Below, piece by piece: positions 160 through 32,664 of a stretch of DNA of 64,000 bases. Position numbers and translations under genes: made by a program. The stretch is from positions 1 through 64,000 of the forward strand of contig CASFOZ010000005.1 of assembly GCA_949296455.1 (NCBI GenBank), given 5' to 3'. Source of the DNA: an uncultured Eubacteriales bacterium (GTDB lineage Bacteria; Bacillota; Clostridia; Christensenellales; CALVMC01). The number at the start of each line of letters is the position of its first letter. The first letter of the stretch is position 1. Below the pieces are notes generated by a model that saw only the letters and a list, made by a program, of their open reading frames with translations, was not told the DNA's origin and searched no databases.

Positions 160-505
160 ATTTGGAGTTTACGGTTTTAAAGCAATTCAAACAAGCGAAG
201 AGTTTACAAAACTCAAATAAAAATGATTTACGGTAATTCAAAAAAGTTTTTAAAAAACAAGCGGACAGGTAACAGAAATTCAGAAAGCGAACGGCTTTCA
301 AAATTCAAATAACCGAAGGGATTGCAAAAAATTAAAAAAGCAAAAGGTTTAAGAAACGCAAACAAGTGTTTTATAGAAAATAAAGGAACGGCTTATAAAA
401 AACAGATAAGTATTTTCAAAAAAAGGCTAAAAACTCACGGAAATTCAAATACGGAAATTCAAATATCGGATGATTACAAAAAAATCAAACAGCGAACCGT
501 TTAAC
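160..505. repeat. Degenerate tandem array (~10-12 copies) of a ~26-29 nt A-rich unit, approx (A/G)GCGAA(C/G)GG-TTTaCAAAAtTCAAAtAA
   Basis: Successive units can be read by eye: ...gcgaagag tttacaaaactcaaataa..., ...agcgaacggc tttcaaaattcaaataa..., ...cggaaattcaaata cggaaattcaaata... (exact 14-nt tandem at ~436-464), ...cagcgaaccg tttaact. Units are not exact and no unique spacers are evident. Confidence 0.55.
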
Positions 506-6172: not shown

Positions 6173-9100
6173 ATGAATAAGAATTATAGTTTAAATAAGA
6201 GTTTAAGTAAAATATTATTTATTGCATTAGTTTTATTCCTTGCGGTTGCCCTTGCAGTTTGCACGGCTGTATCCGGCACGGGAAGTTTGATTGTTTCGGA
6301 AAATAAGGTAACTACAAATTCCGAAAATACTTCCACCATATACGGCGCAGATATAACGGAATACGACGGAACCGTCAGCGCAGCGGTGCAGGAAGATTTC
6401 GACGACGCTAATCTTGCAGGCCGTTGGCAGGGCACGATAGACACTGCCTACGACCCTTCTTCCGAGACGGTGAACGCAGGACAAGACGGCAGCTTTGCAA
6501 AACCGTACTATATCGAAACTGCCGAACAATTAATTAATGTTATAAACAACGCTTCTTCAAAAAGCGGCTCAGAATATACGGACGCTGCTTATAATAATGC
6601 GGACACCTACTTCATAATTAAAAATGATATCGATTTAGGCTCTAAAATGTATGCCGTTTCCGACCAGTCAAGAGCGCTATTCAATATCACCGGTTACGAT
6701 TACACGGCGCTTTCTGGCTATGAAGACTTTGCGACAAGCACAGGCTTTACCGACGGAGGAAACAATTATTCCGATACCGAAAATCCTTTTAAGGCAATTA
6801 AAAAATATCTTGACGACAAAAATATCGGAGAATCTGTTTCCGATATTCAGCAAACCGGCAACGATTTTGCAACGATATATAACTTATATATCGAACCGGA
6901 AAGCTCTTCAAACACAATAGAAGTCGGTCTCTTTAATTTATTCAACGCAAGTGCGTTAGGTATAAATATTTATAACGCTTATGCAAACAACAGTCTTGCT
7001 TTCGATAATTTCGGCTTTTTTGCAGGCGCAAGCACAACCGATGCGTATTTTGCCAAAATAAATATAAAAGGCGCTACCTTTGTTTATGGCGACTCTTATT
7101 CTTCAAGGTCAATAGGCGGTATTTTGGGAAGAGCGCAAGACGGTCATTCGGTAACTTTCGACTCGGTAGGGTTCGAAGGCGGAATAATTGCCGCAGGTAT
7201 AAGACATATCGGCGGTATGGTAGGTTATGTATATACAGGTACAAATCTCACTTTTACGGGAACCAATGAAACTTACGGTAAAATAAGCGCACAGCGGGAG
7301 AGCGGCGGTTTTGTAGGATATGTCGAGTCGAGCAATCTTGTTTTCGAATCGAATAACACCAACAATATCGATATCGACACAACCAACAATGCAGTCGGCG
7401 GCTTTGTCGGATTGCAATCTGAAGGTTCTTTGTCATTCACCGGCAGCAGTAAAAATCTCGGAACGGTAAGAGGGTATAGTTATGTAGGCGGCTTTGTAGG
7501 TTCTTTGGCTGCAAGAAATGTTACCATAACAGGCGGCGTTAACGGCTATAACGGCGGCGCTGCGGACGATACTCTTGTAGAAAAATATAACGATCCTAAT
7601 TCCGCAATAGAGGCAAGCAATATATATGTAGGCGGTTTTATCGGCCGTTTAAGAAGAGCGGAAGCGGTTTTAAGTATTACTAACTCTCATAACTATATGG
7701 TTTTAAAGAATGTTGCAGGAGTTGCGCCAAGTACGGCTTACGGCGGTATAGTCGGCGAGTTCGAGGGGGCTTCCGCAACAATTGAAAATTGCATAAACCA
7801 TGCAGATATCAATAATTTTTATAAGACAGCAGACGGGGCTCAAAGCAATGCCGTGGGCGGAATTGTCGGTAGTTTAAGAGCGGATTTTGTAATACAAAGC
7901 TGCAAAAACTACGGGGATATCAAATCTCATATGAGAGTGGGCGGTATTGCAGGTCTTGCAAACTATAACAATACTTCCGTGAAAATTTACGACAGTATAA
8001 ATTACGGAACTATTTACGCAACAGGATATGACGCAGCGGGAATATTTGCTTCGGCTTATGCAAATATTTATCCTATAAGAATAGAAAGATGCGAAAACTA
8101 CGCTTCAATTTATGTTTCGCCCACAATGAATTTGGCGGGAACCGCAAAACAGGACGGCAGTGTATACAGCGACGAAGAAGCTTTTGAGGTGACGACGGAC
8201 GACAAAAATACGAAATACAAAGATACTCCTACCGTTGCGGGCGGAATACTCGGCTACTATAAGCATTTGACAAACGAAGTAGACGGAGTTTATGTTATAG
8301 ACTGCGTCAACGGAACATCCGAAACACAAAACAAAATTAAAGTTTACGGAAGGAATGTAGGCGGTATTGTCGGAGGTAACGGAAGAAATGCCGCAAATAT
8401 AAACTTTACTATAAATCTCATAAATAATACTAACTATATGGATGTCCACTCAGGAGGCTTTGTCGGCGGTCTTTACGGATATATTACAGGCTATACAAAC
8501 CTTACTATCGGTAACCCGAGTTTCGATGAAGGGTATCAAAAAATATACGGAAACTTCGGCACGGTTTACTCTTATGTCGGCGGCGACGCAAATATAAGCG
8601 CAGATACGGGTAGTTTGATAGGTAAAATAGGCGGATACCTTAAACTTGTCGGTAAAAACGATTATATAAACGATACCGTTGTTAACAGCGAAAATGTCTG
8701 CGTAGGCGGAATTATAGGTTATATGACTTTAACATATTCCGAGTCGGTTGATTTATGCGCAAACTGGGGCAACGAAGAAACCATTAATGGTGGCAGAACC
8801 CATGTAGGTGGAATTTTAGGAGGGTACACAGGTGGCAGTGTAAAAATAACCGGTCAAATGTATAATACGGGCGAGGTTATCTGTCAATATGGAACCTCTT
8901 ATATAGGCGGACTTATTGGAAGAGCTTTAGGTGCATTAACTATAAGCGCCAAAGTTTATAATGAAGGGAATGTTTACAGTCAGCTTAAAACCACGGACGC
9001 ATCTTACGGTACAGTATCAGGCAGTATAGGCGGACTTATCGGCTCTATGGAAAACAATATTGAATTCACAGAAGGCGCCGCAGGCTCTTATAACAGCGGT

Positions 9101-13944: not shown

Positions 13945-16900
13945 ATGAGTTTAAAAAACAAACTGATATCATTATTTGTAATAACATTTATAATTATTAG
14001 TTTATTATGCATTTTGTTTTCAGGTAACAGTATTTCTTTAAACACATACCTTTCAAACGGCTCGGCGGCTAATACAGAGAGTACTGTCGATTATACAAAC
14101 AAAATGCCTACTAATAATAAGATTTCACAAATTCAGAGTTTGGCTAATCCTCTTAATTATGTCAGTATTTCCATACCCGACGATGAAAAACCTGAGGGAA
14201 GAGGAACTTATCGCGAACCGTATATAATTATGGACGCAGGCGATTTAAGATGGCTTACTAACAGGGTAGGTTACGGCGAGTCGGGTTCAAACACTAATAT
14301 ATATGTCGAACTCGGCGAAAATATAGATATGAGTAAACTTACCACAAAAGCCAGGGCACTTACAACTTCTTTGACTCACAGCGGTTATTATAAAAGCGGT
14401 TCAAGCTATGTTGCAAGAACGGCAAACTATATTGTTTGTACAGATTTTTTAGATGTAAAGGAAGGCGAACAGATAGATTCCCAGTTTTATGCTCAGTATC
14501 AGACTTCTACTTCCGATTATTTCTATACCATATTTCCTTTCGATTCCTCTGAAAAAATGATAGAGAGCGGAATTAAAGAATTTACTATAAAATACAACAC
14601 TAATGTCAGTACATGGTATACCGTTCCTGCGGGAGTTAAATATATTAAAATACAGGTGTGGAATACCGCTTCGGCAAATATAAACTCAAATAGATTGGTT
14701 TATACCAGCTATAAAAGCACAAATGCGGCAATCACTTACAACACATATTCCTGGATGCCGATAGGTAACGATATAAAGCCTTTCAGCGGTAATTTTGACG
14801 GGAAAAACCATACTATTTCGAATCTTACCATAAGCACCAACCTTTTGGCAGGCGCGGCAAGCGATTATACTATGCTGGGACTTTTCGGAAGAGTCAGCGG
14901 CGGCGAATATAAAAATGTCAATATCGTAAACAGCTGTATAGAAGGAACCTATACCGCAGGCGAAGTTCATTTAGGACTTTTTATGGGCGGCGGTACAGGC
15001 AGGGTTTCTCTCGATAACATTACGGTAGGGGCAAATGTTCCTTTGGAAGAAGAGGGATCGATTATTTCCGGTACATTCCCGCAAAACGCAAGGGTCGGCG
15101 GAGTTATAGGAAGTGCGGTAACTACAGCTCTTACCAATTTAAAGAATTATGCCTGGGTTCAAGGAAACTCTTCCTACATGGGCGGCATTGCAGGTTATGT
15201 AAGCGGACTTACAAATTTCGAATACAATAACTCTTCAAATTTATATAATTACGGAAGGGTAAAAAAGAACGACGGTTCTTCCGCCGATGCGGGAGGCATA
15301 TTCGGAACTGCCGAATATACTAATTTAGAAGATTCCGCAAATTACGGTACAGTTACCGGCGCAGTCGCAGGCGGTATTATAGGAAAACATAAAGGCGGAA
15401 CTATTTCTAGTTGCGTCAATAACGCCGTCTATGTCGAAGGAAAAGCAGGAGTAGGCGGTATCGTCGGGAATATTCTCAAAGGAGTAACGGCTTCGGTGAG
15501 CGACTGCACAAACAACGGCAGGGTTGTCACTACTCAGGAAAGTGCGGATAACGATAGCGATGTCTGCATAGGCGGTATTGTCGGAAGAATAGACGAGGAT
15601 ACCGTAGTAACAAGAAAAAAATATATTTCAGGCTGCGTAAATAACGGTCAGGTTTATGACCAATACAGAACGGCCGATACCGGCAACAACAACGCCAATG
15701 TTATAAGAATGGGCGGAATTGTAGGCGCTTCTTTCTACGCTTATATTATAGAGTGCGAAAATAACGGTGAAGTCCGTACGCCTTCTTACGAAGTAGGAGG
15801 GGTTTTAGGTTATGCTTCGGTAACCGATATCAGCAAATGCTACAATAACGGTAGGGTTCAAGGCGCAAGCAGAGTCGGCGGAATATTCGGAAATTTCGGA
15901 GGAAGAAATACGAATGTTACCGTTTCCGATTGCTTTAATCAGGGCGAAATAAGAGCAACTAAAACCAACGGCGGCTATGACGGCGCTGTCGCAGGCGGAA
16001 TAGCAGGCAGGTACGACGCCTCTTTAAAAACAAACAGTACTTTTATAAGATGTATAAACATAGGTACCGTCACAGGTAACAATGCAGGCGGTATCGCTGG
16101 CTGGGCAAAAGACCTTAACTCAAATAATTTAAACAATTATTTATTAATGGATAGCTGTTATAATGCAGGAGAGGTAAACGGCAAGAATTATGCAGGCGGT
16201 ATATTCGGCGTAATTACTTCTTCTACCGCTCACAAGACAGGCGTTATGAAAGTAATGAATGTTTATAACTCGGGACAGGTTAATTTAACGGGTAGCGGTC
16301 AGAAAGGTTCTTTTGCGGCTTTGATTTATAATAACGCTAATGCTAAGCCGGAATTAAATGTTTCTAACTTTTATGCCTATTACAGTTCGGGCACGCCTTA
16401 TTCTATTGTAAATCAAAACGGAAACGGAAGTTCATATCAGTTCAATCTTACCGGAATAAACGAAAGCACGAGCAATTTGGTAGGCTCGGTAAATCAATCG
16501 GATTTTGCAGGCTTCGATTTCGGGGCAGATGAAACCTGGGGAATCGTTCCCGGTTACAATAACGGTCTTCCTTACATAAGAGCTATTGATGAAATAGAAT
16601 TGACTTTCGATTATAATACTGTCGGAATAGAAAACGAAACTATTATTGTTCTTTACGGAACAGGCAGCTATACATTAAGCAATACAGTATATAATGAAGA
16701 CGCAAAATACGGCTATAAAGTAAGTAACTGGACTTTAAGTCAGGACGGAAGCGGTACAAGTTACGCCAACGGTGATTCCATTCCCGTTCAAAGACTCAGA
16801 GATATGGTAATATACGCAAACTATGTAGGTGCGCCTTATACTATAAAAATAGCCGGCATAACAAGTACGATAGACGGTGCGTTGACAAATGTCAGCGGCG

Positions 16901-19257
16901 GAGCGGAAGTTGCAATAAAGGAAGACAACGGAGATTCTAAAATTTATGACGGAACATTTACGATAGAAAGTTCTTCGAACTATAACATAGTGGCGTCAGG
17001 TAACAGCACTGTAAGCGGCTCTACATTTAACTTTGCAGGTTGGAATGTTTTAACTTCTGACGGAAGTTATGCGCCGGTAATTTATGGAGATACGGGAACG
17101 ACATTATCGCTATATGAAGTTTTCAGCAGAATGACCGAAGGTTGGGATTCAAACGGAGTTATAACCCTTGTTCCGAAAACAGGTAACATAATTACTTTAT
17201 CGTTTGAAGTAGATGGGGTTTCCCGTGGCGTGGTTCAGGTCAACGGCGTGTCAATGAATTTCGGCGGAAATTCCGCTGCGTATGCAGGAACGGATTATAC
17301 GGTAAGTTCAACCCTTGCAAGTTACTATGAGGTTGAAGAATATACGGTAAATTATCCTGCAGTATCAGGTATCAGCGCAAAAGAGGAAAAATACACTGCT
17401 CAGTCATTTGCGCTGTCGTTGGATTCAAGATACGAAGGAGCCGTTATAACCATAACCGTTAAATACAGGGCAATGGACTTAACATTTACGATATATGCAA
17501 TCGATACCAATCAGAACAGCATAGGCAACCCTTCGGAATTTGCAAGTTTAACAAGCGGAACTTTCAATGTAAACGGAAGATTATCGGAAAATATAGAAAT
17601 TTCCGAAACGCAAAGATACAGATTTTCCGAACTCAGAATTCTAAACAGGAGAACAAGCGAAAATTATACATTAACAAGCAACGATTTAAGTCAGGGCGAC
17701 GGATATGTTTTAAGAAACGATGCTATTTCATTGGACGAAGGCTTTTTATACAATTACAGCTATAACAACGAAGTCGTAATATATCTTGTTTATGAGGAAT
17801 ATTACCTTATAAACGTAACTTCCTCAGAGGGCGGATACCTTACCATATTCATTGACGAAGGTAACGGCTATATAGAAAGCGCTTACGCAGGTCTTGAAGA
17901 AAATACCGGAGGCGAAGGAGAAGAAGACAAAAAACCCGTAATAATAAGCACGGTATCCTTGTATCTTAAAAACGGCGTAAAAATCAGAATAGACGCTACC
18001 GCAAGCGACGCTTACAAGTTCGATACTTATTCAGTAGACGGCCCTCTTTATACAATAATCGGTACGCAGCTCAATTTTGTAGCCAGCGAAGACACCGTTG
18101 TGCTCGGTCAATTCGGTTTTGTTACCTATACAATTAAATACATTCCGAAAACCGACGGCGGTTCTACAATAGGCGTGATTGACGGCGGAATTTTCGTAAA
18201 CGGCGAAAAAACCAATATCGCAAAACTCGGCGATATCGTGACATTAGAACTTCCGCCGGTAAGTAAATATAAACTTTTAAATATTAAATTAACCTTAAAC
18301 AACGGAAGCGAAATCGAAGTCGGCTACGATGAAATAAAATCTTTTACTCTTACCAAAGATGCCGTAGTTAAATATTTCAATGAAAAAAATATCGCAACCA
18401 TTACCGCAACTTACAGCAGACAGAGAACCTTTACCGTTAATATCGACGATATTTCGTCAGGTTCCGTTGCTTGCTATATCGTCGAAGGAGACAGCGAAAC
18501 TTCGTTCGATGCGGTTATCGGTGAAACTTATATCTTTAACGCCAATACCGTTATTAAAATTGTCGCAACCCCTGCTAAATATTACGATTTTAATGAGTTT
18601 AAAGGACAGATTACAGCAAGCGAAATAACGGCGGACGATAATATCGTAAATGTAAAATTAAGTTCCGACAGAATAATACTCGTGTCTTTTACGCCTAAGG
18701 AATATTTCCTTGAAATAATAGACGCTTCCGGCGAAAATGTTAACGGTGAATTTTCCGCAAAATCAAGAAACATAAAAATAGGAGATACCGTTGTTCTGAC
18801 GTTTTCGCCAAATAACGGCTACGCTATTCGCACATGGACTATTAACGGCATAGATGTTCTTGCAGAAGATGTGCAGGATAATATCGTATTCTCCGGTAAT
18901 ACCGTCAGTATTACAATAGACAAAGATTGGCTTGACACATTTACCGACAATAAAATGACAAGTATTGTAACAACTCAGATATCGCCTCTTGTTATGGGTA
19001 TCGTTATAGGGGGCGGCGCAGGTATACTTTTGCTTGTGGCTATTTTAGTAATATTAATGGTTCTTTCGCAGAAGCAGAATAAAAAGATTAAAGAAGAACT
19101 TCTCGAAGAAAATAAAGAAAAAATGAAATTTATCGGCGAAAGTAATATCGTCGGCAGACTGAAAACAGGTGAAAATGTTACTCAGATAAAAGGCAGCGAT
19201 ATTAAAGCTGCTAAAAAAGCTAAAAAAGAAGCGAAGAAAAACGCTAAAAACAGGTAA
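13945..19257 (+). CDS. Giant surface protein A2 (1770 aa), a paralog of A1 with the same architecture
   Basis: Collinear with A1 over its whole length (e.g. SISIPDDEKPEGRG, ...DIDMSKLTTKA, PFSGNFDGKNHTISNLTIST, FAGFDFGADETWGIVPGYNNGLPYIRAIDEI, the InlB-B-like C-terminal modules). The TM and tail are almost identical to A1 (LSQKQNKKIKEELLEENKEKMKF...). Confidence 0.9.
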   Translation: MSLKNKLISLFVITFIIISLLCILFSGNSISLNTYLSNGSAANTESTVDYTNKMPTNNKISQIQSLANPLNYVSISIPDDEKPEGRGTYREPYIIMDAGDLRWLTNRVGYGESGSNTNIYVELGENIDMSKLTTKARALTTSLTHSGYYKSGSSYVARTANYIVCTDFLDVKEGEQIDSQFYAQYQTSTSDYFYTIFPFDSSEKMIESGIKEFTIKYNTNVSTWYTVPAGVKYIKIQVWNTASANINSNRLVYTSYKSTNAAITYNTYSWMPIGNDIKPFSGNFDGKNHTISNLTISTNLLAGAASDYTMLGLFGRVSGGEYKNVNIVNSCIEGTYTAGEVHLGLFMGGGTGRVSLDNITVGANVPLEEEGSIISGTFPQNARVGGVIGSAVTTALTNLKNYAWVQGNSSYMGGIAGYVSGLTNFEYNNSSNLYNYGRVKKNDGSSADAGGIFGTAEYTNLEDSANYGTVTGAVAGGIIGKHKGGTISSCVNNAVYVEGKAGVGGIVGNILKGVTASVSDCTNNGRVVTTQESADNDSDVCIGGIVGRIDEDTVVTRKKYISGCVNNGQVYDQYRTADTGNNNANVIRMGGIVGASFYAYIIECENNGEVRTPSYEVGGVLGYASVTDISKCYNNGRVQGASRVGGIFGNFGGRNTNVTVSDCFNQGEIRATKTNGGYDGAVAGGIAGRYDASLKTNSTFIRCINIGTVTGNNAGGIAGWAKDLNSNNLNNYLLMDSCYNAGEVNGKNYAGGIFGVITSSTAHKTGVMKVMNVYNSGQVNLTGSGQKGSFAALIYNNANAKPELNVSNFYAYYSSGTPYSIVNQNGNGSSYQFNLTGINESTSNLVGSVNQSDFAGFDFGADETWGIVPGYNNGLPYIRAIDEIELTFDYNTVGIENETIIVLYGTGSYTLSNTVYNEDAKYGYKVSNWTLSQDGSGTSYANGDSIPVQRLRDMVIYANYVGAPYTIKIAGITSTIDGALTNVSGGAEVAIKEDNGDSKIYDGTFTIESSSNYNIVASGNSTVSGSTFNFAGWNVLTSDGSYAPVIYGDTGTTLSLYEVFSRMTEGWDSNGVITLVPKTGNIITLSFEVDGVSRGVVQVNGVSMNFGGNSAAYAGTDYTVSSTLASYYEVEEYTVNYPAVSGISAKEEKYTAQSFALSLDSRYEGAVITITVKYRAMDLTFTIYAIDTNQNSIGNPSEFASLTSGTFNVNGRLSENIEISETQRYRFSELRILNRRTSENYTLTSNDLSQGDGYVLRNDAISLDEGFLYNYSYNNEVVIYLVYEEYYLINVTSSEGGYLTIFIDEGNGYIESAYAGLEENTGGEGEEDKKPVIISTVSLYLKNGVKIRIDATASDAYKFDTYSVDGPLYTIIGTQLNFVASEDTVVLGQFGFVTYTIKYIPKTDGGSTIGVIDGGIFVNGEKTNIAKLGDIVTLELPPVSKYKLLNIKLTLNNGSEIEVGYDEIKSFTLTKDAVVKYFNEKNIATITATYSRQRTFTVNIDDISSGSVACYIVEGDSETSFDAVIGETYIFNANTVIKIVATPAKYYDFNEFKGQITASEITADDNIVNVKLSSDRIILVSFTPKEYFLEIIDASGENVNGEFSAKSRNIKIGDTVVLTFSPNNGYAIRTWTINGIDVLAEDVQDNIVFSGNTVSITIDKDWLDTFTDNKMTSIVTTQISPLVMGIVIGGGAGILLLVAILVILMVLSQKQNKKIKEELLEENKEKMKFIGESNIVGRLKTGENVTQIKGSDIKAAKKAKKEAKKNAKNR

Positions 19258-26639: not shown

Positions 26640-26660
26640 TTATAGCGATTCAATAGAAAA

Positions 26661-26687
26661 ACTCCGAAAAATTCGGAGTTTTTTTAT
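26661..26687 (+). terminator. Rho-independent terminator after B2
   Basis: actccgaa-aaa-ttcggagt perfect hairpin followed by ttttttt. Confidence 0.85.
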
Positions 26688-26737
26688 TGCAAATTTTTAT
26701 TAATATAATTAAATTAATAATTTTTTTGCTTATATCT

Positions 26738-26766
26738 ATTGAAAAGATATATATTTTGTGCTAAAA
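26738..26766 (+). promoter_or_regulatory. Putative promoter (TTGAAA-17-TGcTAAAAT, extended -10) for the SPFH/zinc-ribbon gene
   Basis: ttgaaa at 26738-43, a 17-nt spacer ending in tgc, taaaat at 26761-66. RBS aaggag precedes the ATG at 26834. Confidence 0.5.
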
Positions 26767-26833
26767 TAATATCATTAATATTAGGAATTTTATTTTTATT
26801 CCTGTTTTATTAAGTTAGTTTAAGGAGCACGCT

Positions 26834-29287
26834 ATGGGGTTTTCGAAAAACCAGTTTTGTAAACATGTTGAATGGGAAGACAAGTCGTCAGACAGTATCG
26901 GTTTAAGATTTATCTCTAACGGCGATAAGGAAATCTCTAAAAATTCAAAAGTTATCGTTGAGGACAATCAACTCGCTTTATTTTATTTGGAAGGTCAAAT
27001 CACCGATGTTTTTTGGCCGGGTACTTATAAACTTTCCGATTCCGATAAGGTCGCTGTGACTTCGGAAATGTTAGGGTGGAGGCATCCTTTCGATACCCCC
27101 TATGAAGGCGATGTGTATTTTTTCAATACCGATAGTTTTTCAAAACAAAAATGGGTAACTCATTCTGCCGTAACCGTAAACGATAATGAAAGCGGTGGAG
27201 TTAAAATAAAATGTTTCGGAACTTTTTCTTATAATGTTATAAACCCCGGCAATCTTATTGCCAAAGCTTTCGGAGCAAAACCTCTTCTTAAAACCTCCGA
27301 TTTGGAAGCTTCTTTAAACGATATAATTACCAAAAATATTCCCGCTATTTTTTCGGAAAGTAAAATTTCCGTAAAAGCGGCAATTTCCGATTCAAGCGCT
27401 CTTTCCGAGACTGCTCTAAATGTCTTACAGAACGATTTTTCGGAATTAGGTTTAGAAGTAAGAGCTTTTGCTTTTGATAATATTACAAACGAGGATGAAA
27501 AGCCTACTTTAGCGGCTTACGAGGAAACGCCCGTCGAAATCAAAACCACAAAAACGGAAAATTTCCAAAATACTAACCAGCAGATACAATACCCGAATCA
27601 ACAAATGCCGCAATCAAATCAGCAGATACATTATCCGAATCAGCAGCCGCATTCTAACCAACAAATACAATATCCTAACCAACAGGCTCAGGCTTCAAGA
27701 TCGGAATCGGTTCAGTCACAACAGCAAAGACCGTCTAATCCGTCATCTTACAATAATTATCAAAATTCTTATCTTACACGCTCCCCGATGGGCGGAGCCA
27801 GCGGTGGCGGACTTGCTATAAACGACGCTTTTCTTAGAGCTAAAGGTGTTCAGCAGACAAATAAATTAGAAGAAAGAAAGGAATGTCCGAAGTGTCATAC
27901 TATGGTAAAAATTTCTTCAAGGTTTTGTCCTAACTGCGGCAGCGAAGTTAATGCGAAAAAAACTTGCAGTAATTGCGGAGCAGAAATAAACAGCAATGCC
28001 AAGTTTTGTCCTGAATGCGGAAAAACCGTTACCGATATTTTAGAATCAAAGAAAAATTGTCCCAACTGCGGTGCGGAACTCAAACCGGGAGCAAAATTCT
28101 GTCCTGAGTGCGGTACTTCTGTTTTGAATAATACTGTTTCTGCAAATATGCCTGCAAATCAGAATTCTGCCATAAACCAGAATGATTCCTTTGACGCAAA
28201 TCAGAGTGTACATGAAATTAGAGAGACGGTTGAAAATCCAAACGCTTCACAATTACGGAAAGATGAAAGCGAGGTTAATAATACTGTTTCAAGTGAAAGA
28301 CCTTTCGAAAACAATAATATTACTTCTTCCATGGACTCTTCTTCCGAAGAAAAAAAATCCGATATCTTAGAAAGCGAAAATGTTCAAGGTCAAAGTATCA
28401 AGAATTTGGAAAGCGAAAATGAAAACGATTTATCCGCAAACAGTGCTTCCGAAGAGTCGTTACAGACTGAAAGCAATAGTTTGAATGACGGTGAAAATCA
28501 CGCTCAATTCGTTGAGAACGGTTCTGTTTCGGAAGTTTTAAGTTCCGATAATAAAAAAGAAACGGCAGATTTAATCGACGAAACGAATAATGAAAATAGT
28601 GAAAATTTTAATCAGCAAAATATAGATAAGGAAGATAATAATGTTGTCGCCGAATCCGATTCGGAAGAAAAGGTAAATATAAATTTGTCTTCCGAAAATG
28701 AAGAAGTATCGCAAAACCCTATAAATAATGTTTCGGAAAATACTTCTGAATCTTCCGATTCCGATTTAAAAAATGCGGACACAAACGAAATTGAAGAAAA
28801 AAGTTCAGACAATTCTTTAAATCAAGACAGTATTAATGAAAGTAACGAAGAACGGTTTTTAAATCAGAACGAACAGATTGCTGAAAATCAAGATATTGAA
28901 GATAACTCTATTTCGGACAGCAGATACGAAAATCAATCCGTTGACGAGACTAATAATTTAAATGCTAACCTTGAAAACTTATCTCAGCAAAAAAACAGTT
29001 TTCAGAACGATATCGAAATGATGAAAAAAATAATCGTGGAAAGTGATAATGTTTCAAGAGAAAACACGGTTAAAAGTTCGGCTTTTGAAAACGATATCAA
29101 AAATATTTATCAAGGCGAGCAACCTAAAATGCCGTCGTCCGAAAATTCCGTTCCGTTTACAAACGGCGGTATGAATCAAAATCCGAATAACGATATCCAG
29201 TCAAGATTACAGCAGAATATCAATTCTTCGCAAAATAATTTCGCAGGTCAAAATGCGGAAAATTCCGAAGATGATAAAAAAAAATGA
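26834..29287 (+). CDS. SPFH-type (Band_7_1 / YdjI-like) domain protein (817 aa). It is fused to a Gln-rich tandem repeat, three double-zinc-ribbon motifs and a long acidic Ser/Asn/Glu-rich disordered tail.
   Basis: The N-terminus MGFSKNQFCKHVEWEDKSSDSIGLRFISNGDKEI...VEDNQLALFYLEGQITDVFWPGTYKLS follows the characteristic opening of Band_7_1 family proteins (MG..F....IEW.D.S.D.L.WRFP....I..G..L.V.E.Q.A.F...GQ..DVF.PG.Y.L). Three repeats of NQQIQYPNQQ. follow, then CPKCHTMVKISSRFCPNCGSEV, CSNCGAEINSNAKFCPECGKTV and CPNCGAELKPGAKFCPECGTSV. The remaining ~380 aa are low-complexity and acidic. Confidence 0.8.
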   Translation: MGFSKNQFCKHVEWEDKSSDSIGLRFISNGDKEISKNSKVIVEDNQLALFYLEGQITDVFWPGTYKLSDSDKVAVTSEMLGWRHPFDTPYEGDVYFFNTDSFSKQKWVTHSAVTVNDNESGGVKIKCFGTFSYNVINPGNLIAKAFGAKPLLKTSDLEASLNDIITKNIPAIFSESKISVKAAISDSSALSETALNVLQNDFSELGLEVRAFAFDNITNEDEKPTLAAYEETPVEIKTTKTENFQNTNQQIQYPNQQMPQSNQQIHYPNQQPHSNQQIQYPNQQAQASRSESVQSQQQRPSNPSSYNNYQNSYLTRSPMGGASGGGLAINDAFLRAKGVQQTNKLEERKECPKCHTMVKISSRFCPNCGSEVNAKKTCSNCGAEINSNAKFCPECGKTVTDILESKKNCPNCGAELKPGAKFCPECGTSVLNNTVSANMPANQNSAINQNDSFDANQSVHEIRETVENPNASQLRKDESEVNNTVSSERPFENNNITSSMDSSSEEKKSDILESENVQGQSIKNLESENENDLSANSASEESLQTESNSLNDGENHAQFVENGSVSEVLSSDNKKETADLIDETNNENSENFNQQNIDKEDNNVVAESDSEEKVNINLSSENEEVSQNPINNVSENTSESSDSDLKNADTNEIEEKSSDNSLNQDSINESNEERFLNQNEQIAENQDIEDNSISDSRYENQSVDETNNLNANLENLSQQKNSFQNDIEMMKKIIVESDNVSRENTVKSSAFENDIKNIYQGEQPKMPSSENSVPFTNGGMNQNPNNDIQSRLQQNINSSQNNFAGQNAENSEDDKKK
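27581..27712 (+). repeat. Three tandem ~40-nt repeats encoding (S/T)NQQI(Q/H)YPNQQ.. inside the SPFH/zinc-ribbon gene
   Basis: TNQQIQYPNQQMPQ / SNQQIHYPNQQPH / SNQQIQYPNQQAQAS read directly from the translation. Confidence 0.7.
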
Positions 29288-32200
29288 TTGAAGACGGAGA
29301 TGCCGTTGATTCTGATGAGTTTTTAAAAGTAAATAAAGACGATAACTATTATAATGACTCCTTTTCCGATAACGGTTCGGATAGGGAGTCTTTTTATGCA
29401 AATCAGCAAAGTACAAGTAATTTTGAAGATGAAAGTTTTTTGGGGCAATCCGATTTAGGAAATCGGCAATTTTCCGATAACGAATTCAATTCTCATTTTG
29501 AAAATCAAGCGGATAATTCAAACGGTAATGTTGATTTACATAATAATTTTAACGGTAAAGATGATTTAAATAATAATTTATATGATAACGATGTTTTAAA
29601 CACTTATAACGATAATGATTTATACGATAAAAATTTAAATTCTTATAACGATAACGATTCAATAAAAAACGATGTAAATTTATATAACCAAAATGATTTA
29701 TTCGACGATTCTGAAAATAGCGTAGATACTTTGCCGAATAATACAAACGAACAATACTATTTTGAGAATGATTTGAACGATAACGAAATCGTTGGGGAAT
29801 CGGAAAACCCGTTAAATCTTCATAACGGAAATTTTCAAAATTCTGAAAGCGACTTCGAAAATCCCGTAAAAGAATTGAAAAATTCTGAAAACGATGTTTA
29901 TAATTTCAAAAATCCAACAGAAAATCAATACGATTTTAAAAATGCCAACGGAAACGAAATGGCTGTTGATAACAAAATCGACAACGGTGAGAATATTGCA
30001 GATACAAACCCACTCTTTGGAAAAAGAGCCGAAAATTCACAAAACAACAGTGAAGAAGGAAATTTCAATTCGGATGTAGAAAGCCGATTTGTCCAAAATA
30101 CTGCAAATACAATGGACGAAAATACAACGGCTGAGAATTTTCTGAACGATACACGGACTGCTTTTCAAAACAAATTAGATAATGCCCTTTTTAAGGATTT
30201 CGATGATTTTGAGAAAAGTCAAAATACCGATGATTTTGGCGACGATAATTTCAGCGGTGCAGAGATTGCTTTGAAAAATCGAAAAGAAACAGAAGAAGAA
30301 TTTTCGAATGACACGGTAATAGAAAGGGAAACAACCGAAAAAGAATTTGAATCGAACAAAACCGTTTTCAATCCATATTTTAATGATGAAGATATAGAAG
30401 AAAAAGAAAATATCGAAAAAGCTTCTTTATCGGAAAATCATTTAAAAGAAGAAAATGAAAAAGAAATAGATTCAGAAATTAGTGAGTCGGAAAAGAAAGC
30501 TAAAGTAGAGATAGGCGAGTCGGAAAAGAAAATAAGAGTAGGAAATGATGAGTCGCAAGCAGATACAGAAGAAGAAAGCGATGAATCGATAGATGATAGG
30601 TCGTCTGATAAAGAAACAAACGACATAAAACCGACAGACGAGAAAAATCAAAATTCAGAAAACACCGAAGATTTTAACGACGGCAAAGAGGAAATAAAAA
30701 ACCGTTCTATAAATATAAATTTAACCAATCAATTTTTAAATAATTTAAGCATGGCTCAATCAAATGAGAAAATCAAACAAGAGCAGCCTATGCCGGTAGA
30801 TACCGATATAGAAAAGAAAGGGAATAAGAATATTTTAGGGAAGTATTCGGATTTTTTAGACAGCTTAAAAACTCAGGCGGGAGTAAATGATAAGAAAGAA
30901 GATAACTTAGATATTGAATCCGACGATAGCGAAAATGACGCAGATAATACGGAAAATATACAGGCTGAAAAAGAAGACCTTTCAGAAAGCGATGAATTGA
31001 ATTTTCCCGAGTCAAAAGTTTACGATAATTCAAATGCCGAAAACGAAAATATATTCAAAAATTCCGTTGACGAAAAAGAAGAGTCTGAACCTAAACAGGA
31101 GCAGCAGACTTTCGACCCCGGCGCATACCTTAAAAATGTAATAAATCAAAATCAAAATTCCGAAAATGACGCACCTAAAGAAAAAGTTAAAAGAACGATA
31201 TTTGACGAAGAAGATGATGAAGATATAAAGTCGTATAATAAAGAAGATATCAGAAAGTTATTGTTCGACGACGAAGAAGAGGACGAACAAGAAGAGATAC
31301 AAAAAGAAAATTATGTTCAAGCTAGCGAGCAAGACAAAAAGGAAGGGCAAGATAAAAGGGAAGAGCAGGTCAAACAGGAAAGTCAGCCTTTCGACGCAAG
31401 TTCTTATATTAAGAATTTAATATCTTCAAACCAAAAAGAAGTCAAGGAAGAAGAGTCGGAAAAGCAGTCGCCGAAAGCATTTGGAGAAGCTGCCGAAAAC
31501 GAAAACATATTCAAAAATTCCGTTGACGAAAAAGAAGAGTCTGAGCCTAAACAGGAGCAGCAGACTTTCGACCCCGGCGCATACCTTAAAAACATAATAA
31601 ACCAAAATCAGAATAAAGAAAATAAAGATTTAAACAATGAAATAAAAAAAGATAATTTGTTTGCCGATTTATCGAAAAACAATATTTCCGATAATTCAGA
31701 GTCCGATGCCGAAGACGCAAGTGATGGCGAAATGATTTCGAAAATAATGTTCCGAAAAATGGGTATAGAAGATATCGAAGACGATGAAGAGGATGAGAGC
31801 GAAAATGTTTCGGATAGAAAAATCGATTCTTCGGTTGCAGAAAGTCAGAAATTTTTATCGGATAACGAAGCCGTCAAAGATTCAGACAGAGAAACAAGGC
31901 CTAAGGTAAAAACAATTTTCGACGACGATGATGAAGAAGAGCCCGATAAAACTCCCCGTGGGGATTCTTTTGCCGAACAGTTGCTGCGAAAAATGCAGGC
32001 TATGAAAGAGGAAAGGGAGAAAGGCAAAAGAAATTTCGATACAAACGAAGCAAGATATAATCCTTTGTCCGAATACGGAAGCGGACGCAATTATTCAAGC
32101 AGGACGAACGAAAAAGCAAATAACGACGACAGAACTAATTTTGAAAGCAAACAGGAAATAAAAGAAACCGTTCAAGAAGAGCCGGTAAAGCAAAGTATTT

Positions 32201-32553
32201 CTCAAGAGATAAAATCGGATTCGTTTAAAGAAAGCGAAACACGCAAAGACGACATTTCTCTAAATACCGATATTTCAAGCAAAACCGGTGCGGATAATTT
32301 AAATACAAAATCCGAAAACAATAACGGATATGCAAAAGCTCAGCCGACCGGATATTCCCATTCTTTTGTCGATAATATTCTTACATACGGATACGGATGG
32401 GACGATGTGTATTCGTTCAATCAGGAAATTTCGGACGAAGAAGGACTTCTCAACGCATTCGGAGTGTCGAACAAAAGTTATGAAAATGCAGGTTTAAATC
32501 AGCCGTTGAGTTACGATAACGACGACCCGTTAAAAAACATAAAAAAGCCTTAA
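29284..32553 (+). CDS. Hyper-acidic low-complexity protein (1089 aa; Asp/Glu/Asn/Ser/Lys-rich, predicted disordered), with no TM segment or signal peptide
   Basis: A 3.3-kb ORF whose ATG overlaps the stop of the upstream gene (aaaaaaaaATGA). The composition is dominated by D/E/N/S/K and contains an internal duplicated block ENENIFKNSVDEKEESEPKQEQQTFDPGAYLKN(V/I)INQNQN. The coding potential is supported only by ORF length and codon continuity, and low-complexity ORFs can be overcalled. Confidence 0.65.
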   Translation: MIEDGDAVDSDEFLKVNKDDNYYNDSFSDNGSDRESFYANQQSTSNFEDESFLGQSDLGNRQFSDNEFNSHFENQADNSNGNVDLHNNFNGKDDLNNNLYDNDVLNTYNDNDLYDKNLNSYNDNDSIKNDVNLYNQNDLFDDSENSVDTLPNNTNEQYYFENDLNDNEIVGESENPLNLHNGNFQNSESDFENPVKELKNSENDVYNFKNPTENQYDFKNANGNEMAVDNKIDNGENIADTNPLFGKRAENSQNNSEEGNFNSDVESRFVQNTANTMDENTTAENFLNDTRTAFQNKLDNALFKDFDDFEKSQNTDDFGDDNFSGAEIALKNRKETEEEFSNDTVIERETTEKEFESNKTVFNPYFNDEDIEEKENIEKASLSENHLKEENEKEIDSEISESEKKAKVEIGESEKKIRVGNDESQADTEEESDESIDDRSSDKETNDIKPTDEKNQNSENTEDFNDGKEEIKNRSININLTNQFLNNLSMAQSNEKIKQEQPMPVDTDIEKKGNKNILGKYSDFLDSLKTQAGVNDKKEDNLDIESDDSENDADNTENIQAEKEDLSESDELNFPESKVYDNSNAENENIFKNSVDEKEESEPKQEQQTFDPGAYLKNVINQNQNSENDAPKEKVKRTIFDEEDDEDIKSYNKEDIRKLLFDDEEEDEQEEIQKENYVQASEQDKKEGQDKREEQVKQESQPFDASSYIKNLISSNQKEVKEEESEKQSPKAFGEAAENENIFKNSVDEKEESEPKQEQQTFDPGAYLKNIINQNQNKENKDLNNEIKKDNLFADLSKNNISDNSESDAEDASDGEMISKIMFRKMGIEDIEDDEEDESENVSDRKIDSSVAESQKFLSDNEAVKDSDRETRPKVKTIFDDDDEEEPDKTPRGDSFAEQLLRKMQAMKEEREKGKRNFDTNEARYNPLSEYGSGRNYSSRTNEKANNDDRTNFESKQEIKETVQEEPVKQSISQEIKSDSFKESETRKDDISLNTDISSKTGADNLNTKSENNNGYAKAQPTGYSHSFVDNILTYGYGWDDVYSFNQEISDEEGLLNAFGVSNKSYENAGLNQPLSYDNDDPLKNIKKP
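31035..31165 (+). repeat. Intragenic direct repeat, copy 1 (~130 bp)
   Basis: gccgaaaacgaaaatatattcaaaaattccgttgacgaaaaagaagagtctgaacctaaacaggagcagcagactttcgaccccggcgcataccttaaaaatgtaataaatcaaaatc... Confidence 0.8.
31492..31622 (+). repeat. Intragenic direct repeat, copy 2 (~130 bp, near-identical to copy 1)
   Basis: gccgaaaacgaaaacatattcaaaaattccgttgacgaaaaagaagagtctgagcctaaacaggagcagcagactttcgaccccggcgcataccttaaaaacataataaaccaaaatc... Only a handful of substitutions relative to copy 1. Confidence 0.8.
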
Positions 32554-32635: not shown

Positions 32636-32664
32636 TTGACAAGGAAATTTTTTTATTATAGAAT
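32636..32664 (+). promoter_or_regulatory. Sigma-A promoter (TTGACA-17-TAGAAT) of the S10 ribosomal protein operon
   Basis: ttgaca at 32636-41, a 17-nt spacer, tagaat at 32659-64, about 215 nt upstream of rpsJ. Confidence 0.7.

Follow-up and report, generated by a model that had tools for sequence, protein, structure and literature searches.

A divergent YdjI/SamI-type SPFH protein with three zinc ribbons and a long acidic tail in an uncultured Clostridia bacterium

Background

What kind of protein begins with an SPFH domain, continues through a series of zinc ribbons and ends in several hundred acidic residues, and is such a combination as unusual as it looks? The question is raised by a gene (ORF1) of an uncultured bacterium that, as placed by its RpoA, branches deeply among the Clostridia and is a relative of Christensenellales. 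The gene lies in a 64-kb stretch of DNA that was analysed as a whole and is referred to below as the window. The initial annotation of this gene described an unusual fusion, in which zinc ribbons that would normally be supplied by a partner in trans are attached in cis to the SPFH domain, and suggested a link to the giant surface-protein genes lying immediately upstream.

A related system has been studied in B. subtilis, where YdjI/SamI consists of an SPFH domain, a stretch of low complexity and one C-terminal zinc finger. It is a soluble protein that YdjG/YdjH bring to the membrane, and the formation of PspA foci depends on it (PMC8581546; PMC11237479; bioRxiv 10.64898/2026.02.06.704340).

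Results and discussion

Domain architecture of ORF1

The features of the locus and their coordinates are given in Table 1. The N-terminal part of ORF1 belongs to the Band_7_1 family of SPFH domains (PF13421; E = 3.9e-41, 141.4 bits against a Pfam gathering cut-off of 24), with residues 31-221 aligned to positions 8-197 of the 211 positions of the model. In the AlphaFold2 prediction the SPFH core (residues ~10-222) was mostly modelled at pLDDT >90, apart from a low-confidence loop near residues 71-90, and a Foldseek search with this model matched HflK/C, stomatin, prohibitin, flotillin and erlin (probability 1.00, E ~1e-7). A sequence search of solved structures with ORF1 gave only spurious zinc-ribbon matches, e.g. 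to ribosomal protein L32, and Pfam gave no flotillin or coiled-coil match in ORF1. No transmembrane segment was detected in the protein, the maximum 19-residue Kyte-Doolittle mean being 0.69.

Table 1 Coordinates of the features of the ORF1 locus (positions in the window)
Feature	Position	Strand	Remarks
Intrinsic terminator hairpin	26651..26689	+	Stem of 18 pairs, then a T run; ends the upstream giant surface-protein gene
Promoter-like site	26739..26767	+	TTGAAA-17-TAAAAT with TG-extended -10; 10/12 matches; consensus match only
Shine-Dalgarno AAGGAG	26822..26827	+	6 nt 5' of the ORF1 ATG
ORF1	26834..29287	+	ATG start, 817 aa; YdjI/SamI-type SPFH-zinc-ribbon protein with acidic tail
SPFH (Band_7_1) domain	26834..27508	+	Residues 1-225; Pfam, AlphaFold2, Foldseek
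Gln/Asn-rich linker, disordered	27509..27868	+	Residues 226-345; holds the NQQIQYPNQQ tandem repeat
Zinc ribbon 1	27884..27937	+	C351, C354, C365, C368; invariant Cys columns in the family alignment
Zinc ribbon 2	27965..28018	+	C378, C381, C392, C395; Pfam, CxxC motifs, conserved Cys columns, AlphaFold2
Zinc ribbon 3	28058..28111	+	C409, C412, C423, C426; Pfam, CxxC motifs, AlphaFold2
Acidic Asn/Ser/Glu/Asp-rich tail, disordered	28130..29284	+	Residues 433-817; orphan sequence
A9 run and overlapping stop/start ATGA	29276..29287	+	ORF2 in the -1 frame relative to ORF1
ORF2	29284..32553	+	1089 aa, acidic orphan, net charge -155; fills the slot of the relatives' YdjG-like anchor
Promoter-like site upstream of the S10 ribosomal operon	32636..32664	+	TTGACA-17-TAGAAT; marks the 3' neighbourhood

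The linker that follows the SPFH domain (20% Q and 12% N over residues 226-345) plots as disordered relative to the charge-hydropathy boundary and was predicted at pLDDT <50 between residues 233 and 344. What is left in it of the family's post-SPFH helix and Gly-rich segment is degenerate. The Gln-rich repeat noted in the initial annotation was found as three copies of NQQI[QH]YPNQQ, at residues 248, 262 and 275, and at the DNA level Tandem Repeats Finder reported a repeat array at positions 27573-27684 with periods of 21 and 39.

Six CxxC motifs, at residues 351, 365, 378, 392, 409 and 423, make up three CxxC-x10-CxxC pairs, which Pfam recognizes as Zn_Ribbon_1 (PF13240; three stretches, 79.3 bits against a threshold of 25) and DZR (PF12773; two stretches, 66.2 bits against 27.3). 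AlphaFold2 modelled the ribbons mostly at pLDDT ~80-90, in a predicted zinc-ribbon geometry. The ribbons are not terminal, as 385 residues follow the third one. This tail contains 19% N, 16% S, 14% E and 7% D, carries a net charge of -55 and is classed as disordered by the charge-hydropathy criterion. The SPFH domain, the zinc ribbons and the acidic disordered tail of ~380 residues that had been read from the sequence initially were thus all recovered, the first two as confidently modelled domains on either side of a disordered linker. Neither of the two outcomes named at the outset as speaking against that reading, a missing SPFH-family match or Cys pairs not predicted as zinc ribbons, was observed.

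Transcription of ORF1

As had been noted at first, giant surface-protein genes precede ORF1; there are four of them. The proteins that they encode end in a transmembrane helix and a basic cytoplasmic tail. The suggested link between these genes and ORF1 was not borne out; judging from the signals in the DNA, ORF1 appears not to be co-transcribed with them because a strong terminator hairpin, which is the 5' boundary of the ORF1 transcription unit, and a promoter-like site of its own lie between.

Comparison with homologous proteins

A total of 2057 homologs were found, and the counts of ribbons and the lengths given here cover the best 120 of these. Three CxxC...CxxC ribbons are present in 80 of the 120 and two in 39, the family members are 343-396 residues long, and the protein ends only 4-9 residues past the last cysteine in 117. 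The three exceptions are the tailed sibling proteins P0001 and P0002, and P0003, a frameshifted fragment without ribbons. One such homolog bears the database name 'stomatin/prohibitin family, contains C-terminal Zn-ribbon domain'; a literature search under the name 'COG4260' returned no papers. Since the best homologs carry their ribbons in cis and YdjI/SamI has been published with the same layout, the fusion of SPFH domain and ribbons in ORF1 is not unusual. An SPFH domain with a low-complexity linker after it and then two or three zinc ribbons is the standard, widespread and already published architecture, and as regards architecture it is only the 385-residue tail that is unusual for the family.

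At the level of sequence ORF1 is nevertheless an outlier. In an alignment of 55 sequences, 79 columns were at least 90% conserved, and ORF1 retains 48 of them and departs from the family at 31, compared with 11 departures in the next most divergent sequence and a median of 1. Retention is uneven along the protein: 27 of the 51 conserved columns in the SPFH domain and seven of 13 in the linker are kept, compared with 14 of 15 in the ribbons, where all 12 cysteines are present. The KWGT and NPIMMRD motifs have been lost. Because these conserved columns have changed and the post-SPFH helical segment is degenerate, oligomerisation and partner binding of ORF1 may differ from those of the family.

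Comparison between strains gave an omega of 0.05-0.08 (≈ 0.06) for the SPFH domain, indicating strong purifying selection, and values of 0.06-0.16 for the ribbons, 0.10-0.25 for the linker and 0.37-0.68 for the tail. The tail has a dN of ~0.11-0.13 as opposed to ~0.02 in the domains, a difference of about fivefold. The linker varies between strains by indels of 3, 18 and 21 nt.

The partner gene and its absence from the locus

We clustered 876 neighbouring ORFs from 77 family loci. In 34 other genomes the SPFH gene is adjoined downstream, at a median spacing of +16 nt, by a gene for a YdjG-like membrane anchor with two zinc ribbons, a YpeB/NTF2-like domain and a C-terminal transmembrane helix. 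This YdjG-like partner is the only recurrent Firmicute neighbour among the 77 loci, and no PspA-like cluster was found among the 876 ORFs. The zinc-ribbon partner to which the initial annotation pointed (YdjG) exists alongside the ribbons in cis and does not replace them. Clostridial family loci form a conserved two-gene module of SPFH gene and YdjG-like anchor that PspA and YdjH do not adjoin, which points to the YdjI-YdjG pair as the core of the B. subtilis system. In Acidobacteriota the family loci show recurrent ATP-synthase genes and a small membrane protein, which look like lineage synteny.

The YdjG-like partner is absent from the 64-kb window: an HMM built from 34 partner sequences and run over all six frames, with its filters switched off, found nothing better than E = 0.58. 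No YdjG-, YdjH- or PspA-like gene was found in the window, where Pfam annotation shows no PspA or TPM, and no NfeD or FtsH partner occurs near ORF1. A comparison was made with the relative L002, whose ribosomal proteins are 67-84% identical to those of the window. There the SPFH gene is followed by the partner, a DUF1858 gene and the S10 operon, and in the window the tailed SPFH gene is followed by ORF2 and then the S10 operon, with no terminator predicted between ORF2 and rpsJ.

ORF2 has neither Cys-pair ribbons nor a transmembrane segment and gave no match in Pfam, NCBIfam or PADLOC. The possibility that it is a diverged YdjG-like partner was considered and rejected, as BLASTP found no better match to the L002 partner than one at E = 0.28, in low-complexity sequence, and the partner HMM had no match in the reading frame of ORF2 itself. 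A defence-system identity for ORF1 and ORF2 was likewise rejected, neither protein matching any PADLOC-DB defence-system model at E <= 0.01.

The acidic tail

The tail is a fast-evolving, species-specific add-on. A search of 1.84 billion proteins returned a single match to it, from a sibling strain. It is intact in the window, L001 and L088. Two of four strains have a shortened tail: in L086 a deletion of 13 nt shifts the frame, and in L087 a TAG codon interrupts it. The tail and ORF2 show an omega of ~0.5-0.7 and many indels. The frames of both (385 and 1089 codons) contain no stops, as opposed to 15-130 in the other frames. Similarity between the tail and ORF2 was found only in composition, the best E being 6.6.

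Proposed function and alternative explanations

We consider it likely that ORF1 represents a divergent form, specific to this lineage, of the YdjI/SamI type, probably a soluble sub-membrane scaffold, to which a weakly constrained disordered tail has been added. By analogy with YdjI/SamI of B. subtilis, ORF1 would most likely self-oligomerise at the inner face of the membrane, with the SPFH domain forming the oligomer, the flexible linker providing the spacing and a membrane-anchored partner docking onto the three ribbons. For most Clostridia this partner would be the YdjG-like protein encoded directly downstream; here a docking partner is putative. Three changes set this lineage apart. The SPFH domain has diverged strongly with purifying selection still acting on it, the adjacent anchor gene is missing from the locus, and a polyanionic disordered tail of 385 residues has been gained after the ribbons, probably through in-frame repeat expansion. 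The tail may best be seen as a tolerated or modulatory appendage, such as an entropic bristle or a cation-binding brush, and not as a new catalytic or binding domain.

The junction of the two genes allows for another explanation, namely that ORF1 and ORF2 are made, at least in part, as a fusion of ~1900 residues. This could come about by -1 ribosomal frameshifting on A_AAA_AAA or by transcriptional slippage on the A9 run before the ORF1 stop, and the SPFH-ribbon module would then bear a polyanionic disordered region of ~1470 residues. The ORF2 start codon overlaps the ORF1 stop (ATGA) directly after the A9 run, and a -1 slip or one extra A enters the ORF2 frame; runs of at least eight A occur only four times on the + strand of the 64-kb window, although a Lys-rich C-terminus in an AT-rich genome readily yields such a run. 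L001, L086 and L088 have exactly the same junction. It lies within a block of 47 nt, the longest without a mismatch in an alignment of 667 columns whose overall identity is 83.5%, and ORF2 has no Shine-Dalgarno sequence of its own, unlike ORF1. However, an ATGA overlap is a classic arrangement for translational coupling, and ordinary coupling alone suffices to explain both the conserved junction and the missing Shine-Dalgarno sequence. The similar composition of the tail and ORF2 would fit a single product, but no stimulatory element was identified for the slip site, and L086, with its frameshift further upstream in the tail, could not produce the fusion by translation from the annotated start. 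On balance we regard such a fusion as unlikely.

A further possibility is that the polyanionic tail and ORF2 now serve in place of the missing YdjG-like anchor, or of some other partner, and represent a real functional innovation. The SPFH scaffold might for example be tethered electrostatically via divalent cations, polyamines or the basic cytoplasmic tails of envelope proteins. ORF2 lies in the exact syntenic slot of the anchor gene and is tightly coupled to ORF1 across the conserved junction, but no homology to the anchor was detected, and neither the tail nor ORF2 has a transmembrane segment or a strong amphipathic helix. Short hydrophobic/amphipathic motifs in the distal tail, NSFQNDIEMMKKII (residues 721-734), are conserved in P0373, and omega of the distal tail is 0.16 against L088. 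The low value is due to a high dS and not to a low dN, however, and the distal tail is lost in two strains together with its motifs, within a region that evolves fast and is rich in indels. Other observations that could be accommodated are the 133-nt repeated unit of ORF2, which encodes a '...FDPGAYLKNxINQ' motif, the basic cytoplasmic tails that follow the transmembrane helices of the giant surface proteins nearby, and the repeated connection of Band-7/PspA operons with polyamine metabolism (PMC11237479). The idea is wholly inferential, and in our judgement improbable.

Elements of both explanations could be combined, with the tail and the coupled ORF2 forming a polyanionic module of ~1470 residues that replaces the YdjG-like anchor and is possibly joined in part by frameshifting or slippage. 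We think this very unlikely. If it were true, the positioning or regulation of a bacterial SPFH scaffold would depend on a giant polyelectrolyte brush with cations, polyamines or basic protein tails as its ligands.

Finally, a decaying locus, in which the anchor has been lost, the SPFH gene is turning into a pseudogene and both tail and ORF2 represent read-through or junk coding sequence without a function, might be suspected from the outlying sequence (31 of 79 conserved columns changed), the missing partner, the nearly neutral, indel-rich tail and ORF2 (omega ~0.5-0.7) and a tail that is an orphan and truncated in two of four strains, but is highly improbable in view of the strong purifying selection on SPFH domain and ribbons in the species group (omega 0.05-0.16), the retention of every one of the 12 cysteines in the ribbons and of 14 of their 15 conserved columns, the confident AlphaFold2 model, the good promoter-like site and Shine-Dalgarno sequence, and the stop-free frames of 385 and 1089 codons where other frames hold 15-130 stops.

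The preferred reading thus remains that of a divergent YdjI/SamI-type scaffold under purifying selection with a loosely constrained appendage. The open frames, the distal-tail omega of 0.16 and the conserved junction hint at a function of the tail and ORF2 beyond that of a tolerated appendage. With the anchor gone, the SPFH domain shifted and polyanionic sequences newly present, the lineage offers a natural experiment on the roles of ribbons and anchor.

Comparison with known systems

The classical SPFH cage proteins (HflK/C, stomatin, prohibitin, the flotillins FloA/FloT and QmcA) share the alpha/beta fold with ORF1 (Foldseek E 1e-7 to 1e-4), but sequence identity is only 10-16%. ORF1 is without their N-terminal transmembrane segment or hairpin, it lacks the long C-terminal coiled coil with which they build the cage, no long helix being modelled beyond residue 222, and it has zinc ribbons instead.

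YdjI/SamI of B. subtilis, encoded in the pspA-ydjGHI (= pspA-samGHI) operon, resembles residues 1-432 of ORF1 in layout, to go by its published description: a Band-7/SPFH domain with no membrane anchor, next a low-complexity region and then a zinc finger or ribbon. YdjI is described with one zinc finger, whereas ORF1 has three ribbons and adds the 385-residue acidic tail, and pspA, ydjG and ydjH are absent from the 64-kb window.

The nearest sequence family is the clostridial module of an SPFH protein with three zinc ribbons and a YdjG-like partner, whose members are annotated in MAGs as 'SPFH domain-containing protein' and 'hypothetical protein'. The window locus differs from this module in having lost the partner and gained the tail and ORF2, and in the degenerate post-SPFH helix. 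In contrast, the domain order and the three ribbons are shared, identity is ~30-36% over residues 1-433, and in the relative L002 the module occupies the same chromosomal position as ORF1, upstream of the S10 operon.

Domain organization of ORF1

ORF1 begins and ends exactly where the initial annotation placed it, and the SPFH domain, the three zinc ribbons, the Gln-rich repeat and the Ser/Asn/Glu/Asp-rich tail of about 380 aa described there were all recovered. Six CxxC motifs (residues 351, 365, 378, 392, 409 and 423) form three CxxC-x10-CxxC ribbons. The linker before them is 20% Gln and carries three copies of NQQI[QH]YPNQQ, and the tail (residues 433-817; 19% N, 16% S, 14% E, 7% D) has a net charge of -55. 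No TM-like segment was found in ORF1. An AlphaFold2 model, with a 55-sequence alignment as input, reached pLDDT values above 90 in most of the SPFH core and mostly 80-90 in the ribbons, with residues 233-344 below 50; Foldseek against PDB matched it to HflK/C, stomatin, prohibitin, erlin and flotillin at E of about 1e-7.

Coordinates of ORF1, ORF2 and associated features (nucleotide positions refer to the window, residues to ORF1)
Feature	Position	Strand	Details
ORF1	26834..29287	+	ATG start, 817 aa
SPFH Band_7_1 (PF13421)	residues 31-221		Pfam E = 3.9e-41
Three Zn_Ribbon_1 and two DZR stretches	residues ~349-429		Pfam, all well over gathering scores
Linker tandem repeat DNA array	27573-27684
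ORF2	29284-32553	+	1089 aa, net charge -155
A9 run, then ATGA overlap of ORF1 stop and ORF2 start	29276-29287		junction also in sibling strains L001, L086 and L088
ORF2 133-nt direct repeat	31035-31167 and 31491-31623		copies 93% identical
Predicted terminator	26651-26689		between surface-protein genes and ORF1
Promoter-like site, extended -10 element	26739-26767		5' of ORF1

Only within its own species cluster does RpoA of the source organism reach 96-99% identity; the next best matches (66-67%) are to 'Candidatus Ornithoclostridium' (Christensenellales) and other Clostridia MAGs, a gap that points to an uncultured, fairly isolated Clostridia lineage. Upstream of ORF1, four consecutive giant ORFs (851-26639; 1768, 2473, 1770 and 2454 aa) abound in Gly/Ile/Asn repeat motifs, the last ending in a TM helix and a basic tail. 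A Pfam scan of three of the four (all but 13945-19257) gave one match above 0.001, a weak Flg_new_2/InlB B-repeat in the first ORF; they are probably surface adhesin-like proteins. No terminator was predicted between ORF2 and the S10 operon, which has a promoter-like site of its own.

Family architecture and the partner gene

A homolog search with ORF1 residues 1-433 found 2057 proteins. Three CxxC...CxxC ribbons occur in 80 of the best 120 of these, and two in 39. Lengths are 343-396 aa, with the C-terminus 4-9 residues past the final Cys, apart from P0001 and P0002, the siblings with a tail, and P0003, a frameshifted fragment without ribbons. The family ranges over Clostridia, Christensenellales, Acholeplasmatales and Acidobacteriota, and NCBI names one homolog 'stomatin/prohibitin family, contains C-terminal Zn-ribbon domain'. 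The published layout of the B. subtilis SPFH protein YdjI/SamI is the same (PMC8581546, PMC11237479, bioRxiv 10.64898/2026.02.06.704340), and residues 1-432 therefore have a textbook YdjI/SamI-type layout. The cis fusion that the initial annotation considered unusual is thus already explained by a known, common family architecture, and what is left over is a lineage-specific variant whose acidic tail is an orphan, whose SPFH sequence has shifted and which lacks the anchor next to it.

In 34 of 77 family loci, essentially the non-Acidobacteriota ones (L006-L085 among them), the same gene lies directly downstream of the SPFH gene, on the same strand with a median gap of +16 nt. Its product (about 350-385 aa) has four CxxC motifs, one C-terminal TM helix and a confident AlphaFold2 model (pLDDT 88.6, pTM 0.81), and is annotated in databases only as 'hypothetical protein' (428 clusters, all named 'hypothetical'). 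The partner in L002, a locus from a relative (7193-8311), has a weak, sub-threshold match to PF08271 TF_Zn_Ribbon, precomputed PF08271 annotation is carried by many partner homologs, and YdjG is likewise reported to belong to PF08271 (PMC9239133). Clostridia and relatives have in this an unannotated conserved pair in which SPFH-ZnR precedes a 2xZnR, YpeB/NTF2-like, C-terminal-TM protein whose central domain has no Pfam model; neither PspA nor YdjH was found near the pair, and no PspA-like neighbour recurred among the 77 loci.

L002 also encodes the closest short-form homolog (P0004), and the ribosomal proteins of its source are 67-84% identical to those of the window. Its gene order is SPFH-ZnR, YdjG-like partner, DUF1858 and S10 operon; at the same chromosomal place, the window has SPFH-ZnR with tail, ORF2 and S10 operon. 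A partner HMM run over every frame of the 64 kb with filters off found no YdjG-like partner (best E 0.58), and ORF2, considered as a candidate, shows no similarity to it. The SPFH-ZnR gene likewise lacks a YdjG-like partner in Acidobacteriota/Pyrinomonadaceae loci (L015, L023, L028-L032, L037-L043 and others); its 5' side carries the ATP synthase operon and, in 21 loci, a multi-TM protein of ~166 aa, and its 3' side often a ~430-aa protein, beta-ketoacyl synthase-like by eye. These neighbours are probably lineage synteny.

ORF2 and its junction with ORF1

ORF2 has no Cys-pair ribbons, TM segment or family match, and a 15-billion-protein collection does not contain its exact sequence. Between strains it shows 66% aa identity and many indels, with flanking genes about 97% identical; against L086, ω is 0.62 (370 gap columns vs. 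306 aligned codons), in contrast to 0.08 for the flanking surface-protein gene. The tail and ORF2 frames are fully open (15-130 stops in the other five frames), and the charge-hydropathy criterion classes both as disordered. ORF2 thus evolves and behaves as the tail does. Its direct repeat encodes a repeated '...EPKQEQQTFDPGAYLKNxINQNQN' motif. A functional replacement of the anchor by the polyanionic tail together with ORF2 seems improbable.

Window and L088 align at 83.5% identity overall, and no identical stretch of that alignment is longer than the one that holds the junction (47 nt). ORF2 lies in the -1 frame relative to ORF1, A_AAA_AAA matches a slippery heptamer perfectly, and no Shine-Dalgarno sequence precedes ORF2 (ORF1 has AAGGAG). 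The junction could represent plain translational coupling, or a frameshift/slippage site fusing both ORFs; we regard such a fusion as unlikely.

Selection and strain variation

Against the sibling strain L087, ω is 0.05 for SPFH, 0.23 for the linker, 0.06 for the ribbons and 0.68 for the tail; against L088 the values are 0.06 (95% CI 0.02-0.12), 0.10, 0.16 and 0.37 (95% CI 0.26-0.56), with dN about 0.11 in the tail and 0.022 in the folded domains. The ω of 0.16 for the distal 117 tail residues against L088 stems from high dS (0.73), dN not being low, and is therefore not read as strong constraint. A decaying locus is improbable; the low ω of the domains speaks against it.

Of 79 family columns with conservation of 90% or more, 31 differ from the consensus in the window protein, compared with 11 in the next most divergent member and a median of 1. 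The changes affect 24 of 51 such columns in SPFH but a single one of 15 in the ribbons. The post-SPFH segment conserved in the family ('ENISLPEEVEKALDxRT...') is here degenerate and broken by the Gln-rich insertion. So many changed SPFH columns, together with strong present-day purifying selection, look like a past functional shift, not decay.

With phmmer against 1.84 billion representative proteins, the tail had a single match, the 826-aa sibling P0373 (tail intact, 84% identical overall). Two of four sampled strains, both metagenome assemblies, have shortened tails, through a 13-nt deletion and frameshift at codon ~562 (L086) or a TCC-to-TAG change giving a stop at codon ~711 (L087); the tail thus appears dispensable in part. 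Linker repeat number differs among strains through in-frame indels, tandem repeat periods in the region are without exception multiples of 3, and the strain variation is driven by repeats. Several database entries for this gene are truncated or frameshifted (P0002, 577 aa; P0003, 295 aa, its C-terminus out of frame; P0001, 710 aa), which marks the low-complexity and repeat stretches as prone to errors or mutations in assemblies. L086 (2840-5400) is 98-100% identical to the window in ribbons and tail, 93.6% in SPFH and 87% in the linker (the comparison also took in L087 555-2770 against window 26834-29287), and dS along the gene against L088 ranges from 0.14 to 0.73, suggesting recombination within the ORF1 gene among strains.

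Comparison with the B. subtilis system

The best-supported reading, which we consider likely, is that ORF1 is a soluble YdjI/SamI-type SPFH scaffold with a weakly constrained tail. The analysis directly supports the fold, the domain layout, the partner gene of relatives and the selection regimes. By analogy with the B. subtilis work, the SPFH domain would oligomerise and the ribbons would dock onto a membrane-anchored partner, YdjG-like in relatives; the tail may be a polyanionic disordered appendage under weak constraint, produced by repeat expansion. The SPFH-ZnR and partner pair of relatives resembles a minimal YdjI-YdjG core, and in B. subtilis, too, the zinc-ribbon partner YdjG comes on top of the cis ribbons of YdjI/SamI.
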